Source of the DNA: a virus
Length of the DNA: 17,214 nucleotides
Strand: one strand, 5' to 3'
UHGV virus genome: UHGV-0135926
The notes under the pieces were generated by a model that was given only the letters and a program-made list of their open reading frames with translations, ran no database searches and was not told the DNA's origin. Below, in pieces: positions 4,081 through 11,433 of this stretch. The translations under genes were made by a program, and so were the position numbers. Numbering within the stretch: the stretch's first letter is position 1; every line of letters starts with the position of its first letter.

Positions 4081-4908
4081 TTAGGCTTTAAAGTTACCGA
4101 TGAAAGTTTCCACTGATTCGCCTTCGAACTTGCTGATCAGCAAATCGCGGAATTCGTTGGCGATCGCTTCTTCCTGAGCTTCAAGTTGGACAATGCGCAG
4201 AACAAAGCAGGGTTCATCGCTAGTCAGCAGGCTGTTACGCAAGCTAAAGCGGCGTTCGCCCAGGCCTTCATACGGCATACATTTGAACTCGAACGCCACA
4301 GGCATTACGTCTTTGCTGCTTGCTTCAACGCTTTGCATCAGCGATTTTTTACCAGCGAAATCACCAGTTTCATGGTCCTGCTGTGTTGCTTGCTGAATAG
4401 TGATACGACGCACAGCCTGAGCCGCCTGGGAAATCTGCATCGTATTGCCATCAGCATCAAACGCCAGCAGGTAATCGCTCCAGTCTTCCAGCCATTCAGC
4501 AATTTGCTTTTGTTTCAGACGTTGACCATCGATCTGCAGTAACGCGCGGAACGGGGCGGTTTTCTTCAGGGTGATTGAAGCAACGTTATCGGCGTGACCA
4601 GGATTATCCAGGGTGCCGATGTTGAACACTGAACGGGCGGTCATGTTGTCAGCGTCAATGAAGCAACGAGCTGGTTCACTGTCGCTGGCGTAACCTTTAG
4701 AATAACGTGCGAAGTCGTCAATACTGGTTGTGGTCATTTCGCCACGAAAGCGGAAACGTTCCAGAGAAAAGCGCTCGAGGCTTTCAACGCCAGTACCCTC
4801 TGGCAGTAATGCGGTCGGGCAAGCCAGGCCATGAATATCATTCAGGTGATAACCGGAAAGAACCAGGTCTTTGACCTGCTTGAAGGTACCGCTGTCTAAC
4901 TGAGACAT
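4081..4908 (-). CDS. yfdQ: YfdQ-family protein (DUF2303-like)
   Basis: 275 aa; ATG at 4906-4908 with AAGGA about 8 nt upstream. Sequence, size and gene order match the CPS-53 yfdP-yfdQ-yfdR arrangement as I recall it. Confidence 0.7.
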   Translation of the reverse strand: MSQLDSGTFKQVKDLVLSGYHLNDIHGLACPTALLPEGTGVESLERFSLERFRFRGEMTTTSIDDFARYSKGYASDSEPARCFIDADNMTARSVFNIGTLDNPGHADNVASITLKKTAPFRALLQIDGQRLKQKQIAEWLEDWSDYLLAFDADGNTMQISQAAQAVRRITIQQATQQDHETGDFAGKKSLMQSVEASSKDVMPVAFEFKCMPYEGLGERRFSLRNSLLTSDEPCFVLRIVQLEAQEEAIANEFRDLLISKFEGESVETFIGNFKA

Positions 4909-4964
4909 AAAAATTCCTTATTAACTGATGATCAAAGTGGTATCAGTGAGTTTGTTGTTGCGGA

Positions 4965-5336
4965 TCACTGAGCCGCTTTAAGCTTTCCATCCACCGCGCC
5001 AGTGATCCCGAACAGCTGACCCTGATCTTCCTGCAGGATGGTGAGCTTCCCGCCTTTGTTGACCCACATCGGGGTTTCGGTTGTGTCCTCTTCGGAGGCT
5101 TTACCACGCGGTGTTGGGGTGCTGTAGTTCAGCTTGTGCTTGATCTTGACGCGCTTCTCTTCAACGGAATTACCCATGCGCTCAAAATCAAAGGTGAGGA
5201 CTACTTTGCCTTTGTTGCCGTTGTTCAGAACGCCAAGCGCGGTGGTGTTAAGTGCTGCCGCGATTTTGTTCATGAACACGCCGGCATCCAGTTCGCCAAG
5301 AAAATCTGGCACTACGGTCATGCGGTCATTACTCAT
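4965..5336 (-). CDS. First gene of the leftward operon; YfdP-like by size and position (123 aa), function unknown
   Basis: ATG at 5334-5336 with GAGGG 7 nt upstream. Not arginine-rich, so not an N-type antiterminator. Confidence 0.6.
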   Translation of the reverse strand: MSNDRMTVVPDFLGELDAGVFMNKIAAALNTTALGVLNNGNKGKVVLTFDFERMGNSVEEKRVKIKHKLNYSTPTPRGKASEEDTTETPMWVNKGGKLTILQEDQGQLFGITGAVDGKLKAAQ

Positions 5337-5466
5337 GGTTTTACCCTCGTTAAGGCGGCTGCCACCGCCGAACTTTCTCCATACTCAACTGGAAGCGCAC
5401 TCCGCTTGTTTCACACCTGTCACCCATAACTGGTAAGTGAAGGAGTGCGCTTTCATGTTGTGATCT

Positions 5467-5517
5467 GAAAAAGGCTGGCGGTTACCGGAAATACACGGGA
5501 AAACACCGGTCCGCCAG
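5467..5517 (-). terminator. Intrinsic terminator in the pL leader (tL-like)
   Basis: Minus-strand RNA: CUGGCGG-ACCGG-(17-nt loop)-CCGGU-AA-CCGCCAG followed by CCUUUUUC. That is 12 bp of stem with a 2-nt bulge. Plus-strand coordinates 5475-5517 for the stem and 5467-5474 for the U-tract. Confidence 0.6.
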
Positions 5518-5797
5518 AACATGGAGTTACTTGTTATTGCTTTAGCCTGCTTTTAACCACATCAGGCGCGGTGGTAGGTATCTTCGGGCGGGGGCCAGTG
5601 ACTAGCTGGCATCCCTACGGTACTTTTCACCGACAACCGCGGGTTAGACGGTTCCGTTTCGTCGGATAGAGCTGTCGACGCTGGTAGTCACTCCAGCCCG
5701 TAACCCCTCCCGAAGACACCTGTCAGCGAATCATCCGGTTATTCATACGTCACCGGCGGCTACTTCGTGGGCGTCCTGCCTGTTCGCTGTTTCGTAT

Positions 5798-5831
5798 AGG
5801 TACATTATGTACCTTGAGGGTACATTGTCAA
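5798..5831 (-). promoter_or_regulatory. pL promoter with overlapping OL operator(s)
   Basis: On the minus strand: TTGACA (plus 5826-5831), 16-nt spacer, CATAAT (plus 5804-5809). A perfect 19-bp palindrome ATGTACC-ttgag-GGTACAT (5807-5825) overlaps the spacer and -10, with an extra half-site forming AGGTACAT-t-ATGTACCT (5798-5814). Confidence 0.6.
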
Positions 5832-5833
5832 GG

Positions 5834-5859
5834 ATAAAAAAACCTGCCGAAGCAGGTTT
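5834..5859 (-). terminator. Terminator of the repressor transcript
   Basis: Stem aaacctgc (5840-5847) / gcaggttt (5852-5859), loop cgaa, followed on the minus strand by a run of seven U (plus-strand A 5836-5842). Sits between the cI stop (5871) and the pL -35. Confidence 0.65.
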
Positions 5860-5870
5860 GTGATGATGGG

Positions 5871-6545
5871 TTAAGGCTTATGCCTGTGCCGTCGTGGTTT
5901 TCCTGAGAAAACAACGGTGCCAATAATCGAGCAATTACCATTGATCCTAATATATGGCTCTGGCCAGTTGGCGTTTAAAGCTTTAAGAAACTTTTCGCCA
6001 CTATCTTCTATTAATCGTTTAAACGTCGTTTCGCCAGAATCATGCATTAAAGCAATAACATCATCGCCATGAGAAGCTGCAACCTCTGGATCTACAAAAA
6101 TCATATCGCCAGGACGATACTCATCGATCATTGAATCACCAATGACGCGTAAGATATAAGTCATTGGCCCGCACGGAACGGGACAAGGATATGTTTCTAC
6201 ACTACTCAAATCTACCTCTGCATAACCAGCATCCGTCCATGCTCCGGCTTGCACCCAGGATATAACCGGGACCATCGTAATTGATCTTTTAACGTCTGAA
6301 ACGTCGGGTGATTTAGCAATGTTGGTAGTTTGATGTTCGGTATCTAGCCAACCTTGAGGCAAGTCAAAACATTTTTCGATATGCCTTGCCATAGCGTCAC
6401 CAATACCTTTGGTGGCACCTTCACCCATAAACCGGCTGGTTTGTGTAGGTTCACGATCGATCATGTTAGCGAAGTAGCTATTACCCCCAACACCATCTCT
6501 CAATTTTCGGGCGTTTAATCGCCTGATTTCCTGGATAGTTTTCAT
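5871..6545 (-). CDS. cI: CI-type repressor with C-terminal LexA-like S24 peptidase domain (SOS-cleavable)
   Basis: C-terminal half resembles P22 C2 / lambda CI (ISWVQAG…, RVIGDSM with catalytic Ser, TFKRL with catalytic Lys, …INGNCSIIGTVV). N-terminal XRE-like HTH. ATG at 6543-6545 chosen over the track's TTG at 6560 because the putative pRM places the TSS on that ATG. Confidence 0.85.
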   Translation of the reverse strand: MKTIQEIRRLNARKLRDGVGGNSYFANMIDREPTQTSRFMGEGATKGIGDAMARHIEKCFDLPQGWLDTEHQTTNIAKSPDVSDVKRSITMVPVISWVQAGAWTDAGYAEVDLSSVETYPCPVPCGPMTYILRVIGDSMIDEYRPGDMIFVDPEVAASHGDDVIALMHDSGETTFKRLIEDSGEKFLKALNANWPEPYIRINGNCSIIGTVVFSGKPRRHRHKP

Positions 6546-6551
6546 CAGCAA

Positions 6552-6630
6552 ATTAAACAATGTGTACCTCTATGGTACAAGTACCTTGTGGGTTCATTTC
6601 TTTCGTGTAATATGTACACAGGAGGTACAT
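6552..6630. promoter_or_regulatory. OR region: three 19-bp operators, pRM (leftward) and pR (rightward)
   Basis: Operators GTGTACC-tctat-GGTACAA (6562-6580), AAGTACC-ttgtg-GGTTCAT (6579-6597), ATGTACA-cagga-GGTACAT (6612-6630). pRM on minus: TTGTAC (6575-6580), 17 nt, TTTAAT (6552-6557), 6 nt, then ATG. pR on plus: TTGTGG (6586-6591), 16 nt, TAATAT (6608-6613). Confidence 0.55.
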
Positions 6631-6633
6631 ATT

Positions 6634-6834
6634 ATGAAAGAGTATTGGGACTCTTTAACTAAAGAGCAGCAAGGCGAATTAGCTGGAAGCGTAGGTTCCA
6701 CGCCTGGCTACCTGCGTTTAGTTTTCAATGGCTACAAAAAGGCAGGTTTTTCCTTGGCTAAAAAGCTGGAGGAAACAACTGCTGGGATTATCAGCAAATC
6801 TGATCTTCGTCCTGACATTTACCCTAAACAGTAG
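6634..6834 (+). CDS. cro: Cro-like / YdaS-like small HTH regulator
   Basis: 66 aa from ATG 6634 with GGAGG 8 nt upstream; the track's upstream extension lacks an RBS and overlaps the operators. Ends …LRPDIYPKQ, typical of YdaS/Cro-like proteins. Divergent from the repressor. Confidence 0.75.
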   Translation: MKEYWDSLTKEQQGELAGSVGSTPGYLRLVFNGYKKAGFSLAKKLEETTAGIISKSDLRPDIYPKQ

Positions 6835-6877
6835 CAGACGAGCTGATTTTTATAACCACAGAATTAAGGGGTTAACC

Positions 6878-7429
6878 GTGGGTAACGAACCTATTTGGAA
6901 AGTCGAACGTCAGCCAGCCTGGCTGGTGGCGGCGATAAAAAAAACGATCACCGATCTACCTGGTGGTTATGCCGAGGCGGCGGAATGGTTGGGCGTGACA
7001 GAGAACGCATTGTTTAACCGCCTTCGTGTTGACGGCGATCAGATCTTCCCGCTGGGCTGGGCAATGGTTTTACAACGTGCTGGTGGTTCAACTCATATCG
7101 CTGATGCCGTTGCGCGCCATTCTCAGGGCGTATTTGTACCGCTGGCAGATGTTGATGATCTGGATAACGCCGATATCAACCAGCGCCTGATGGAGTCCAT
7201 CGAATGGATAGGCCGTCATTCTAATTTTGTACGTAAAGCCACGGCTGATGGGGTGATTGACGCAGATGAGCGCGCTCAGATTGAGGAAAACAGCTATCAG
7301 GTTATTGCGAAGTTCCAGGAGCACGTAGCGCTTCTTTATCGAGTTTTTTGTGTCGCTGAAAAGAGTGACGCCCGCGAGTGTGCAGCTCCGGGCGCCTTGG
7401 CGAACAACTCTTCGAGTATGGAGAAATAA
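6878..7429 (+). CDS. YdaT-like protein at the CII position
   Basis: Start chosen at GTG 6878 (AGGGG 6 nt upstream); the frame has no Met before this point that does not overlap cro. Follows the YdaS-like gene as in the Rac prophage ydaS-ydaT pair. Confidence 0.55.
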   Translation: MGNEPIWKVERQPAWLVAAIKKTITDLPGGYAEAAEWLGVTENALFNRLRVDGDQIFPLGWAMVLQRAGGSTHIADAVARHSQGVFVPLADVDDLDNADINQRLMESIEWIGRHSNFVRKATADGVIDADERAQIEENSYQVIAKFQEHVALLYRVFCVAEKSDARECAAPGALANNSSSMEK

Positions 7430-7781: not shown

Positions 7782-8628
7782 ATTAACCGGCTACGTATGG
7801 GATGGTTGCGCGGCGTCGGGCATGAAGTTGTCTAGTGTCGCGATCATGGCCCGCCTCGCTGATTTCAGCAGCGATGAGGGCGTGTGCTGGCCGTCCATTG
7901 AAACTATTGCTCGCCAGCTTGGCGCAGGGCCGAGCACTATCAGAACGGCAATCGCTAAGCTTGAAAAAGATGGCTGGCTCACGCGTACACAGCGCCGTAA
8001 TGGTAACCGTAATGCTTCGAACGTGTACCGCCTGAATGTGGCGAAACTTCAGGCTGCCGCATTTTCTCAACTGTCAGATTCTGACACGTCAAAATCTGAC
8101 GCATCAAAATTTGACGCCTCAAAAACTGACCCGTCGAAATCCGTCAAAAACGGCGGTTTTGACCCGTCAGAATCTGGCGGGGATCCGTCAGTAAAATCAA
8201 AACAAGATCCACAAGTAACTTCAAAACCCTCTTGTCCGGTTGCGGCGCAACCAGACCCTGAAGTCGTGATTACTGATCAGGCAATTTTGGTTCTGACCCA
8301 TTTGAACAAGATCAGCGGATCCCGGTATCAGAAATCAAAAACATCCCTGGAGAACATCCGTGCCCGACTGCGTGAGGGATACAGCGTTGCAGACCTGCAA
8401 CTGGTTATCGACCTGAAGCATGAGCACTGGCACGAGAACGACGAGCAGTACCAGTACATGCGCCCGGAAACGCTGTTCGGCCCGAAGAAATTCGAGAGCT
8501 ATCTGCAAAGCGCTACCCGCTGGGAGCAGAAGGGACGGCCTAAACGCGCTGACTGGGGTGCGAAAAAGCGCGATGTGATGGCTTTTGGTCCGGTTGATAC
8601 AACGATTCCAGAGGGGTTCAGAGGATGA
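7771..8628 (+). CDS. Replication initiator (lambda O-like role): N-terminal HTH, iteron-encoded repeat linker, conserved phage C-terminal domain
   Basis: 285 aa; the internal peptide repeat SDSDTSKSDASKFDASKTDPSKS is encoded by the iteron array. Position downstream of the CII analogue. Stop overlaps the next start (ATGA). Confidence 0.8.
   Translation: MSTKLTGYVWDGCAASGMKLSSVAIMARLADFSSDEGVCWPSIETIARQLGAGPSTIRTAIAKLEKDGWLTRTQRRNGNRNASNVYRLNVAKLQAAAFSQLSDSDTSKSDASKFDASKTDPSKSVKNGGFDPSESGGDPSVKSKQDPQVTSKPSCPVAAQPDPEVVITDQAILVLTHLNKISGSRYQKSKTSLENIRARLREGYSVADLQLVIDLKHEHWHENDEQYQYMRPETLFGPKKFESYLQSATRWEQKGRPKRADWGAKKRDVMAFGPVDTTIPEGFRG
8071..8198. repeat. Origin-type iteron array inside the replication gene (15-bp period)
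   Basis: Tandem TGACACGTCAAAATC (8082-8096), TGACGCATCAAAATT (8097-8111), TGACGCCTCAAAAAC (8112-8126), TGACCCGTCGAAATC (8127-8141), then degenerate copies to 8198. Followed by an A-rich stretch. Confidence 0.7.
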
Positions 8629-9506
8629 CGTTAAACAAATATTGCCAGTCGCTGGCGGAACTACGTAGCCAACCAGCCCACGAATTGAAAGAAGTTGGCG
8701 ATCAGTGGCGAACACCGGATCTGCTTTTTTGGGGGATCAACGCGCTATTTGGTCCATTAGTTCTGGACTTGTTTGCTGACGCCGACAACGCGAAATGCCC
8801 GGCATGGTACACCGCCGAAGATAACGCGCTGACGCAGGACTGGTCTGAACGTCTGGCAGAACTGGGTGGCGCTGGCTATGGCAACCCACCGTATAGCCGT
8901 TCGCAGTACCACGAGAAACAGGCGATCACTGGTATGACGCACATCATGAAATACGCAGCAGCCCAGCGCGAGAAGGGCGGTCGCTATGTATTCCTGATAA
9001 AAGCCGCGCCGAGTGAAACGTGGTGGCCGGAAGATGCCGATCACATTGTATTCATTCGCGGGCGCATTGGGTTCGATCTGCCTGTGTGGTTTGTACCTGC
9101 TGACGAAAAACAGAAACCCACCAGCGCGTTTTTTGCCGGTGCCATAGCTGTATTCGATAAGTCGTGGCGTGGTGAGCGGTTCAGCTATATCAACCGCACA
9201 GAACTGGAGGCAAAAGGTCGGGAATTTATGGCGCTGGCTCAATTCGCTGTTGGTAAAGAGCAAACAATTGCAGTGCGGACAGCCCAGGAACCAGTAATAC
9301 CATCGGAAACTGAGTCACGTATCTGGCCTCTAGAGGTTGGTCTGGTGTTTAACCAGGTGGAAGGCGTTGACGTATTGAGTGAGGCTCAGCAGAACAAGCT
9401 GAAAGCCAACATCAATCAACTCTGGCTGGAACGAACGGCCACCAGCGAAATTATTACAATTGCGCGTGGTCTTGTTGGCAGCATGCAGGGGGTAACCCAT
9501 GCGTGA
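8625..9506 (+). CDS. Phage Dam-family DNA N6-adenine methyltransferase
   Basis: 293 aa; catalytic NPPY motif (…GYGNPPYSRS…). Translationally coupled to both neighbours (ATGA at 8625, 8-nt overlap with the next gene). Confidence 0.8.
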   Translation: MTLNKYCQSLAELRSQPAHELKEVGDQWRTPDLLFWGINALFGPLVLDLFADADNAKCPAWYTAEDNALTQDWSERLAELGGAGYGNPPYSRSQYHEKQAITGMTHIMKYAAAQREKGGRYVFLIKAAPSETWWPEDADHIVFIRGRIGFDLPVWFVPADEKQKPTSAFFAGAIAVFDKSWRGERFSYINRTELEAKGREFMALAQFAVGKEQTIAVRTAQEPVIPSETESRIWPLEVGLVFNQVEGVDVLSEAQQNKLKANINQLWLERTATSEIITIARGLVGSMQGVTHA

Positions 9507-11433
9507 GATTATCGTTGATAACTTTGCTGGTGGCGGTGGCGCATCAACGGGTATTGAACTGGCGATCGGGCGCAGCGTGGATATTGCGATAAACCACGAC
9601 GAAAACGCCATTGCGATGCACAAGACGAACCACCCGGACACACTGCATTATTGTGAATCCGTATTTGACGTGGATCCGGTAGCCGCCACCGGAGGTCATC
9701 CTGTCGGACTGGCATGGTTTAGCCCGGACTGCCGACACTTCTCGAAGGCAAAAGGCGCAAAGCCTGTGAAAAAAGAGATACGCGGTCTGGCCTGGATTGT
9801 TCTGCGTTGGGCACTGGCAAAGCGACCGCGCGTGATGATGCTGGAGAACGTGGAAGAGTTCAAAACGTGGGGACCGCTGCTGGCCGATGAAATGCGTCCG
9901 GATCCTGCCCGCACTGGCGAAACATTCAATGCATTTGTCGGCATGCTGTCCACTGGCATTCCTGCTGATCACCCGGCACTGGCTGAGGTTTGTGAGTTTC
10001 TGTCTATCGAAAGAGGTAGCGAGCAGGCACAAAAGCTGGTGGATGGGCTGGGATATGATGTTGATTATCGCGAACTACGTGCGTGTGATTACGGCGCGCC
10101 GACGATCCGCAAACGCTTCTTCATGGTTATGCGTTGCGATGGTTGCCCAATCCAGTGGCCTGCTATTACCCATGGGGATCCTAAGTCTCTGGAGGTGCAA
10201 AGTGGCAGGCTGATGCCATGGCGTACCGCTGCGGAATGTATCGACTGGAATATTCCGGCCCTGTCCATCTTCGACCGCAAAAAACCGCTGGCGGAGAACA
10301 CTCTGAAGCGGATCGCGCGCGGCATACAGCGCTTTGTTATCGAAAGTGCGTCGCCGTTTATTGTGAAGTGCAACCACACGAGCTCAAAAAATGCGTATGA
10401 CGCTTTTCGCGGACAGTCACTGAATGAGCCATTACAGACCATTACTAAAAAACTCGGCTACGCGTTAGCCGTTCCACACCTGACAAAATTCCGCACTGGC
10501 GCAACCGGGCAGCCCCTTACCGAACCTGTTCCGACGGTAACCGCTGGCACGTCAAAACGCCCGGGCGGGAACGGGCATGCACTCGGGATTGTTGAGGCTG
10601 CACTGACGCCATTCCTGGCGGGTAATGGTGGTAGTGAATACCAGGCGAAACCGCGCCCGCTGGATAAACCTGCTCATACCATTCTGAAGCAATCCCGAGC
10701 CTGTCTGGTTGCGCCAGTGATAGCCCGCCAGTTTGGGGCCAGCGTCGGCCACCGTGCAGACGAACCGAGCGCAACCATCACCGCTGGTGGTGGCGGTAAA
10801 TCTCAACCGGTAACGCCTACGCTGATTCAGATGGGTTATGGCGAACGACCTGGGCAAGAACCGCGTGTGCTGCGACTGGATAACCCGCTGGGGACCGTTA
10901 CTGCAGGCGGAAATAAATTTGCGACGGTGAGCGCGTTCCTGGCGAAACACTACGGCGGTAACTATACGGGGCCTGGTGTCAGTATGGATGAACCCGCGCA
11001 TTCAGTGACCACTGTCGACCATCATGCGGTAGTTGCCTCTCATCTGGTGAAACTGCGTGGAACATGCCGCGACGGGCAACGCCTTGATGTGCCAATGCCA
11101 ACAATCACTGCTGGTGGCCAACACGTGGGTGAGGTACGCACATTTCTCGAGACGTATTGCGGGGAAAGTGACGATGAATGGCTGGTAACGATCGATGGGG
11201 TTAAATACCAGATCGTTGATATCGGAATGCGCATGTTGCAGCCGCATGAACTCTACAAAGCGCAGGGCTTCCCGGATGGTTACGTTATTGATCAGGACTA
11301 CCGTGGAAATCGCTATGCAAAAGATAAGCAGGTAGCCCGCTGCGGTAATGCGGTACCACCACCATTCGCCAGGGCGCTGGTGGAGGCAAATCTTCCGGAA
11401 CTGTGTGCAGTGCAACAGCAGGAGGTGGCATGA
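9499..11433 (+). CDS. DNA cytosine-5 methyltransferase with a long repeat-containing variable region
   Basis: 644 aa. Motif I FAGGGG, PC-type motif SPDCRHFS, motif VI MLENV, motif VIII TIRKRFFMV, motif IX LQPHELYKAQGFPDGY, motif X RCGNAVPPPF. Between VIII and IX there are seven tandem units with core h-[DNT]-[EKNV]-P-x-x-[TS]-[IV]-T. Confidence 0.85.
   Translation: MREIIVDNFAGGGGASTGIELAIGRSVDIAINHDENAIAMHKTNHPDTLHYCESVFDVDPVAATGGHPVGLAWFSPDCRHFSKAKGAKPVKKEIRGLAWIVLRWALAKRPRVMMLENVEEFKTWGPLLADEMRPDPARTGETFNAFVGMLSTGIPADHPALAEVCEFLSIERGSEQAQKLVDGLGYDVDYRELRACDYGAPTIRKRFFMVMRCDGCPIQWPAITHGDPKSLEVQSGRLMPWRTAAECIDWNIPALSIFDRKKPLAENTLKRIARGIQRFVIESASPFIVKCNHTSSKNAYDAFRGQSLNEPLQTITKKLGYALAVPHLTKFRTGATGQPLTEPVPTVTAGTSKRPGGNGHALGIVEAALTPFLAGNGGSEYQAKPRPLDKPAHTILKQSRACLVAPVIARQFGASVGHRADEPSATITAGGGGKSQPVTPTLIQMGYGERPGQEPRVLRLDNPLGTVTAGGNKFATVSAFLAKHYGGNYTGPGVSMDEPAHSVTTVDHHAVVASHLVKLRGTCRDGQRLDVPMPTITAGGQHVGEVRTFLETYCGESDDEWLVTIDGVKYQIVDIGMRMLQPHELYKAQGFPDGYVIDQDYRGNRYAKDKQVARCGNAVPPPFARALVEANLPELCAVQQQEVA

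Follow-up and report, generated by a model that had tools for sequence, protein, structure and literature searches.

The pL leader of the lambdoid prophage analysed here is a modular non-coding regulatory region, and the RNA at its 5′ end, a three-way junction designated module A, may, with a probability put at roughly 40% on sequence comparisons, be a cis-acting antitermination or anti-Rho element that depends on host factors. The existence of structured RNAs in this leader is solid. Module A and a second RNA, module B, belong to no Rfam family, and neither an annotation nor a description of them was found in the literature search, which for module A covered the motif, antitermination in the carrier phages and put-like RNAs. 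A preprint on Pas sRNAs was considered as an account of module A and set aside; it concerns sRNAs of the late region.

The window, that is, the whole stretch of 17,214 nucleotides (UHGV virus genome UHGV-0135926), covers the early region of an SfV/ST64B/e14-type lambdoid prophage. In the related SfV, ST64B and E. coli prophage, the repressor is labelled LexA-family or cI, and YfdP and YfdQ are likewise annotated as neighbours. The rest of the minus-strand early-left operon encodes Ead/Ea22-like, Mom-like, Rv2179c-like exonuclease and PrtN/excisionase-like proteins, while the plus strand carries the genes for cro, a CP76-type cII, a replication protein, Dam and C5 methylases, RusA, an antirepressor, a DUF968 protein, a PF03589 Q antiterminator and the lysis functions. 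One prophage brings together three DNA-modification functions, namely a Dam methylase, a 644-aa protein with a C5-cytosine methylase domain and a Mom-like protein (8625-11433 on the plus strand; 2153-2614 on the minus strand).

Promoter pL, the sole promoter-like site detected across 4800-6900, lies between the terminator hairpin of the repressor gene and the leader, and its operator-like repeat is also present on the pR side (repeat D3). Transcription is predicted to start at ~5797, which, with the start of yfdP at 5336, gives a leader of ~461 nt. The earlier reading of the letters alone (the sequence-only reading) had described some 460 nt after pL as devoid of a plausible ORF, and this description is borne out: the promoter matches in 11 of 12 positions, and the minus-strand ORFs of the leader comprise just 20, 24, 25, 30 and 45 codons. 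These small ORFs are present, yet none is conserved among relatives, and they were rejected as genes. For the 45-codon ORF (5522-5385), the AUG of the window is CCCUG in most relatives, and indels of 1 and 2 nt occur within the frame; the ORFs within module B fall in a region whose interior relatives swap completely. A conserved small ORF, which the sequence-only reading had itself named as evidence against its proposal, was not found. The entire leader is more stable than shuffled sequence (z = -3.0).

Comparison of 80 IMG/VR loci encoding the same YfdP with SfV, ST64B and an E. coli prophage revealed the leader as a mosaic, in which four pieces, modules A, B, C (terminator included) and D, assort independently across relatives. 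The leaders of related prophages had been proposed as the place to look for covariation, and modules A and B, hairpin D and the terminator all show it there. The coordinates of all features are compiled in the table.

Table. Features of the pL region in the window, with positions counted from its first letter.
Feature	Position	Strand	Remarks
cI-type repressor gene (Peptidase_S24)	5871-6560	-	Pfam PF00717, E = 7e-25; same transcription direction as pL
Intrinsic terminator of the repressor transcript	5859-5840	-	just 5′ of pL; 8-bp GC-rich hairpin, then UUUUUAUCC
pL promoter	5831-5804	-	TTGACA-16-CATAAT, 11/12 matches; overlaps operator repeats
Module A, three-way-junction RNA	5789-5724	-	~66 nt; alignment A1, model R1
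Module A, P1	5789-5783 with 5730-5724	-	5-7 bp across the alignment
Module A, small hairpin	5780-5778 with 5772-5770	-	3 bp, GGA-containing loop
Module A, near-invariant single strand	5769-5757	-	CCACGAAGUAGCCG
Module A, P2	5756-5752 with 5739-5735	-	5 bp: two constant C-G and three covarying pairs
Module A, P2 loop		-	12 nt, GGCRUAYGAAKA
Module A, AUGA junction	5734-5731	-	
Module B, multi-helix RNA	5721-5576	-	fold z = -3.8
Module B, closing helix	5721-5704 with 5593-5576	-	17-19 bp; 16 pairs in alignment A2, invariant there and so uninformative for covariation
Module B, hairpin P3	5696-5681	-	compensatory changes
Module B, hairpin P5	5610-5594	-	compensatory changes
Module B, P3/P5 kissing loops	5690-5685 with 5604-5599	-	complementary
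Module C, upstream part	5575-5518	-	A/C-rich spacer with short hairpin GCCUG...CAGGC; conserved in 33 unique relatives
Leader intrinsic terminator	5517-5468	-	hairpin 5517-5475, CC, U5 at 5472-5468
Module D, long hairpin between terminator and yfdP	5455-5390	-	inverted repeat I5
Small hairpin GGCGGUGGCAGCCGCC and yfdP Shine-Dalgarno GAGGG	5371-5337	-	kept in relatives
yfdP, first gene of the pL operon	4965-5336	-	Shine-Dalgarno GAGGG at 5348-5344
yfdQ (DUF2303), next after yfdP	4081-4908	-	

The P1 helix of module A starts ~9 nt after the predicted start site. In alignment A1, which holds 134 distinct sequences of module A, 92.7% of the cells are paired, as against 20-43% with slid partners, and 287 cells show double changes, compared with 69 in shuffles (0 of 500 shuffles reached as high a count). 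Both sides change in 9 of the 15 pairs, and 33 G-U cells would be mismatches on the opposite strand. P1 comes in at least four kinds of helix (GCGAA/UUCGC, CCACC/GGUGG, GUCAUC/GAUGAC and GGAAC/GUUCC) and P2 in nine, around a junction of ~25 nt that is near-invariant. The helix swaps, the G-U cells and this junction together argue for selection on module A as RNA. The invariance of its core 18-mer is owed in part to the collection of sequences by that same 18-mer, but the core is nearly unchanged also in the set collected by YfdP, and module A is conserved far more than the sequence flanking it. With covariance model R1, a single copy is found in the window (5713-5796, 96.9 bits), whose P2 loop reads GAC where more than 90% of the copies have GGC.

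Module A is widespread. An exact match to the core 18-mer is present in at least 120 viral contigs, one copy each, and of 100 viral loci (1 Mb) searched with the model, 99 have module A; the sole exception, L171, had matched the search pattern by chance. A second, weaker copy is confined to L162 (971-1041, minus strand, 44.9 bits), ~600 nt 3′ of the first and on the same strand. Among phage records, 51 contain module A and none annotates it; the carriers include ST64B, SfV, SfII, SfIV, mEp237, mEp460, Yersinia YeP1-3, Pectobacterium ZF40, Citrobacter phiNP, Pantoea AH07, SPN3UB, SEN34 and Klebsiella phages, and an Aeromonas phage record shows a partial match by BLAST alone, with no model score. 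About one third of the complete E. coli genomes (1820 of 5426) carry it, in up to four copies and unannotated. Copies verified with the model occur in Leclercia, Enterobacter, Phytobacter, Pseudocitrobacter, Pantoea, Serratia, Rouxiella, Xenorhabdus and Photorhabdus; scanning species genomes for the 18-mer also returned many chance matches in high-GC MAGs, which the model scores at 19-27 bits, compared with at least 70 bits for the true copies of Enterobacterales. E. coli K-12 has one copy, in prophage e14 between the repressor gene ymfK and ymfJ (72.7 bits; L205 7101-7185, minus strand, equivalent to NC_000913 ~1,202,100-1,202,184). This copy has one extra nucleotide in the invariant core and a changed P2 loop; it may be decaying, in a prophage that is defective. 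K-12 is a handy experimental system.

The region is highly mosaic: a ClpX-zinc-finger-like gene or SfV orf33 takes the place of module B in relatives, and the whole leader could be taken for non-functional debris of recombination and lost genes. Such a view is strongly disfavoured by the covariation, which extends from modules A and B to the terminator and hairpin D, and with module A near-invariant across several families of Enterobacterales and in the 1820 E. coli genomes, it is hardly credible.

The position of module A is as constant as its core. It follows strong sigma-70 promoters at a distance of 5-20 nt in at least ten unrelated operator/immunity types, and in the lambdoid carriers inspected it lies just 3′ of pL, always downstream of the repressor gene. 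In classical cI/cro/cII/O/P phages (mEp237, SPN3UB, SEN34), it takes the nutL/N position immediately 5′ of kil/gam/recE-type genes, and no N is annotated in them. In T5-like Providencia phages, module A stands at the head of the pre-early operon, within the terminal repeat. In one of them, PR1, the operon comprises PR1_7, PR1_6, A2 and A1, and module A lies ~10-13 nt downstream of an extended -10 promoter, with CGCUCUUUAAAAA ~10 nt after it; the pre-early operon of T5 is transcribed before any phage protein is made. Many relatives have module A just 12-30 nt 5′ of the first gene, with no long leader and no obvious terminator, and the first genes that follow differ completely between phages. 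The same core is found in mosaic phages of Escherichia, Salmonella, Yersinia, Pantoea, Serratia, Xenorhabdus, Photorhabdus and Pectobacterium, and this spread, together with the T5-like pre-early operon, implies a conserved partner of module A. On the pR side of the window, model and repeat searches found neither a second module A nor a pL/pR repeat.

A link to the Nus machinery is suggested by boxA. The leader was correctly read as lacking it: a scan of 5337-5800 for CGCUCUUA or GCUCUUUAACAA found no site with two or fewer mismatches, and a boxB-type hairpin of ~15 nt with a GNRA-like pentaloop is not obvious by eye in the leader. Nor was an N-like gene detected in the window by Pfam and PHROGs on the candidate early genes or by a scan of R/K density, searches that a very divergent N might escape. 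Of 147 non-redundant leaders from relatives, 24 (~16%) have an rrn-type boxA (GCUCUUUAACAA or CGCUCUUUAAAAA) on the sense strand 3′ of A or B, at a distance of 7-57 nt and usually 28-29 nt after A; none has a boxA upstream. The 12-nt core GCUCUUUAACAA presumably matches the boxA of the rrn operons. It is usually preceded by a small covarying hairpin, GCGNCC-loop-GGACGC, and one class of relatives has the order module A, a small gene, module B, and then hairpin and boxA. The hairpin followed by GCUCUUUAACAA also occurs in the pL leaders of relatives as a stand-alone nut-like module (L089 1333-1365, L069 1140-1185, L327 3045-3075), with no recognisable N gene. A boxA-like ACTCTTTAACTA at 6650-6661 on the plus strand of the window, two mismatches from GCTCTTTAACAA, lies ~40 nt into the predicted pR transcript, in the start of cro; it could be chance, the window containing five such matches where 1.4 are expected.

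The location at the nutL position, as well as the boxA of some relatives, would also suit a nut-like site for an unrecognised antiterminator encoded by the phage, dependent on protein as with lambda N. In three relatives (L046, L073, L202), module A is followed by a first gene whose 70-aa product has the Arg-rich N-terminus MNAAQRRKAYRK, which, judged from its residues, is reminiscent of the arginine-rich motifs of N-type proteins and adds to the case. The protein falls into no PHROG family, however, and neither a homologue of it nor an N-like family or another Arg-rich early protein was detected in the window. The genes after module A being wholly different between phages, and module A heading the pre-early operon of a T5-like phage, also speak against a dedicated phage protein, and in a non-exhaustive look no protein family stood out as common to all carriers. 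This alternative is improbable.

Module B, which follows module A in the window, is a separately mobile structured RNA; it is always on the strand of module A, though not always adjoining it. RNAalifold and pair counts on alignment A2 (14 distinct relatives) support its fold. Its second helix, UUACGG/CCGUAG, is backed by wobble changes, and an inner hairpin with the conserved loop UAACCC by compensatory ones, while the contact between the loops of P3 and P5 shows one compensatory pair, C-G in nine sequences and U-A in five. In a third variant class, the closing helix and the architecture are kept with kissing sequences UGAUUA/UAAUCA, the interior being wholly replaced between classes. The closing helix could be a site of RNase III processing, or module B an accessory RNA.

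The intrinsic terminator of the leader forms a hairpin of 12 bp with a 17-nt loop (-19.5 kcal/mol, z = -1.9), and its stem covaries in relatives (CUGGCGG/CCGCCAG, CUGGUGG/CCACCAG, CUGGCUG/CAGCCAG), with a U5 tract after each. Its presence was rightly noted in the sequence-only reading, but the epithet "strong" overstated what these values make a moderate terminator. Beyond it, the pL operon of the window has one weak terminator-like site on the transcribed strand; in SfV, a terminator is annotated 3′ of the first pL gene. The upstream part of module C is weakly structured, with no gain in stability over shuffled sequence (z = +1.3). Module D, in contrast, folds with z = -3.45 (segment 5337-5460), and the base of its stem shows a G-C to C-G swap in relatives. 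Other relatives have unrelated long hairpins in its position, which suggests either a structural requirement or exchangeable RNA cassettes. A 13-nt RNA sequence, GAGUAUGGAGAAA, occurs twice with 100% match (inverted repeat I4), at 5386-5374 on the minus strand, just 5′ of the hairpin at the yfdP ribosome-binding site in the pL leader, and at 7414-7426 on the plus strand, where cII ends in the pR transcript. Roughly where the window has modules C and D, the pL leaders of two relatives contain matches to the STnc100 sRNA (RF02076; L003, that is ST64B, 2355-2473, and L089 2132-2355), scoring 35 and 42 bits against a gathering score of 47; sRNA genes may be particularly frequent in pL leaders.

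The arrangement in the window, with module B directly 5′ of module C and the terminator, invites the idea of a riboswitch-like leader or attenuator, in which B or A would sense a signal that decides whether the terminator at 5517-5468 forms; the junction and kissing loops of module B are indeed typical of ligand-binding aptamers. Such a device would need to hold sensor and terminator together, yet the two occur independently in relatives, no aptamer of Rfam is matched, and the replacement of the interior of B between classes is unusual for a ligand pocket. An alternative pairing of B or C with the terminator was looked for, and conservation was not seen: CCACCGCGCC, which by inspection could pair with the terminator's 5′ arm as an antiterminator, no longer does so where the stem differs, in the L151-type variant. 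Attenuation of this kind is very improbable.

The reading that is favoured, antitermination by module A through host factors, would work as follows. Module A would fold as soon as the host RNA polymerase leaves pL and, presumably independently of phage proteins, act in cis on RNA polymerase and/or Nus factors to yield a termination-resistant elongation complex. The modified complex would carry transcription through the ~460 nt of untranslated leader, a natural target of Rho, and pass the terminator into yfdP, yfdQ and the remaining early-left operon, so that in N-less lambdoid phages module A might fill the niche of nutL and N, or of putL. Several observations point in this direction: the fixed 5′ position of module A, combined with the boxA that accompanies it in some relatives and its place in a T5-like pre-early operon; a near-invariant unpaired core among phages without an obvious common protein; and a covarying terminator between module A and the first gene. 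Along these lines, the carriers mEp237 and mEp460 belong by name to a phage collection that a passage in PMC11893012, citing Kameyama 1999, describes as Nus-dependent. Against antitermination stand the single copy of module A per phage, with no copy at pR, unlike nut and put; the absence of boxA, the one weak further terminator-like site and the GAC in the P2 loop of the window; and the many relatives in which module A adjoins the first gene, where a role in stability or translation as a 5′-UTR fits equally. A crude terminator finder applied to the 1.5 kb after module A gave 1.6 in the sense and 2.35 in the antisense direction, that is, no sense excess, and is uninformative.

An alternative, offered in part by the sequence-only reading as a small RNA ending at the leader terminator, is that the leader encodes an ncRNA of ~330 nt (A, B and C, ending at 5468), or processed pieces of it, with a trans-acting role as decoy, sponge or anti-defence RNA, or else that module A is a 5′ stabiliser or translation element, the read-through into yfdP being a mere leak of a moderate terminator. 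A conserved terminator would suit a defined ncRNA end; modules B and D, structured and moron-like, are mobile as self-contained units, and the STnc100-like matches below threshold in the pL leaders of relatives fit the same picture. In many phages module A abuts the ribosome-binding site of the first gene, and it displays a conserved GGA hairpin loop and a second conserved GGAUGA, which we take to resemble binding sites of RNA-binding regulators. A plain stabiliser, on the other hand, needs no near-invariant junction of ~25 nt, the association with boxA points to transcription elongation, and the leader lacks a promoter-like site for yfdP itself. We regard this account as rather unlikely.

If antitermination by module A is taken together with the remaining observations, module A might represent, separately from put, the second class of RNA that acts as a protein-independent processive antiterminator or against Rho, docking on host RNA polymerase or Nus factors, sometimes with boxA, and providing an immediate-early "ignition" element for N-less lambdoid prophages (e14, SfV, ST64B and relatives) and T5-like pre-early operons, while module B would represent a further new class with covarying kissing loops; this combined proposal is put forward as tentative. 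No account was found of how N-less, put-less lambdoid phages such as SfV, the serotype-converting Shigella phages, ST64B and e14 pass their early-left terminators and Rho. Module A, very common, conserved, unannotated and in the right position, is a concrete candidate for this read-through, and the T5-like pre-early leaders that contain it suggest that invading genomes might generally launch their first transcripts in this way. Should it need no phage protein to act on host RNA polymerase or Nus factors, it would join a single RNA class known to do so, and would also be a compact tool for terminator-proof expression. Even with another function, modules A and B are two families supported by covariation, and as such candidates for RNA databases and prophage annotation.

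Among known RNAs, the prophage sRNAs of the STnc100 type (RF02076) resemble modules A and B in being prophage-borne, but have no match in the window. The covariance-model scan for known sRNAs that the sequence-only reading had recommended came back empty for the leader: Rfam 15 gives no match in the window at gathering thresholds and none at E ≤10 on the transcribed strand of 5337-5800, and the relatives show sub-threshold STnc100-like matches alone, elsewhere in their leaders.

The put elements are comparable in proposed function. The putL and putR sites of HK022 are cis-acting, protein-independent antiterminator RNAs that bind the zinc-binding domain of the β′ subunit of RNA polymerase, and rpoC mutations in this domain abolish their read-through of terminators. 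Like put, module A is a structured RNA of ~70 nt at the 5′ end of the pL transcript of an N-less lambdoid phage, with a terminator 3′ of it and presumably a host component as partner. The topology differs, put RNA consisting of two tandem stem-loops (PMC9378689) and module A of a three-way junction. Furthermore, put in HK022 and nut in lambda have a copy at pR, while module A is single, and module A is sometimes coupled to boxA, unlike put. Sequence searches point the same way: the leader has no blastn match in the HK022 immunity region, the module A model gave no match in HK022 (best E >4), and putL matched 21 of 50,697 phage records by blastn, compared with the 51 that contain module A, with none of the carriers SfV, ST64B, SfII, SfIV, mEp237 and mEp460 among the 21. 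A list of put-like sequences was reportedly given by King in 2011. Membership of module A in the put family was rejected on these searches and on copy number, and module B is not placed there either. Of the suggestion that the leader forms a put-like structured RNA, the covarying structured RNA thus stands and the kinship with put does not; module A may work like put, yet outside its family.

Module A shares its genomic position with nutL of lambda, and its relatives have a consensus boxA next to a small hairpin, whereas the window lacks boxA and an N-like gene, and no boxB was recognised by eye. The order also differs, hairpin then boxA in the relatives, as in rrn, but boxA then boxB in lambda nut. 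The antitermination leader of rrn operons is built as boxB-boxA-boxC and works with NusA, NusB, NusE, NusG, SuhB and S4. It has no counterpart of module A, and boxA is missing from the window. Related boxA elements shield untranslated CRISPR arrays from Rho (PMC7665894). Both the rrn and the CRISPR systems protect long untranslated transcripts with host factors only, as is proposed for module A, and rrn-type antitermination by boxA alone is the closest analogue for those relatives that carry boxA.
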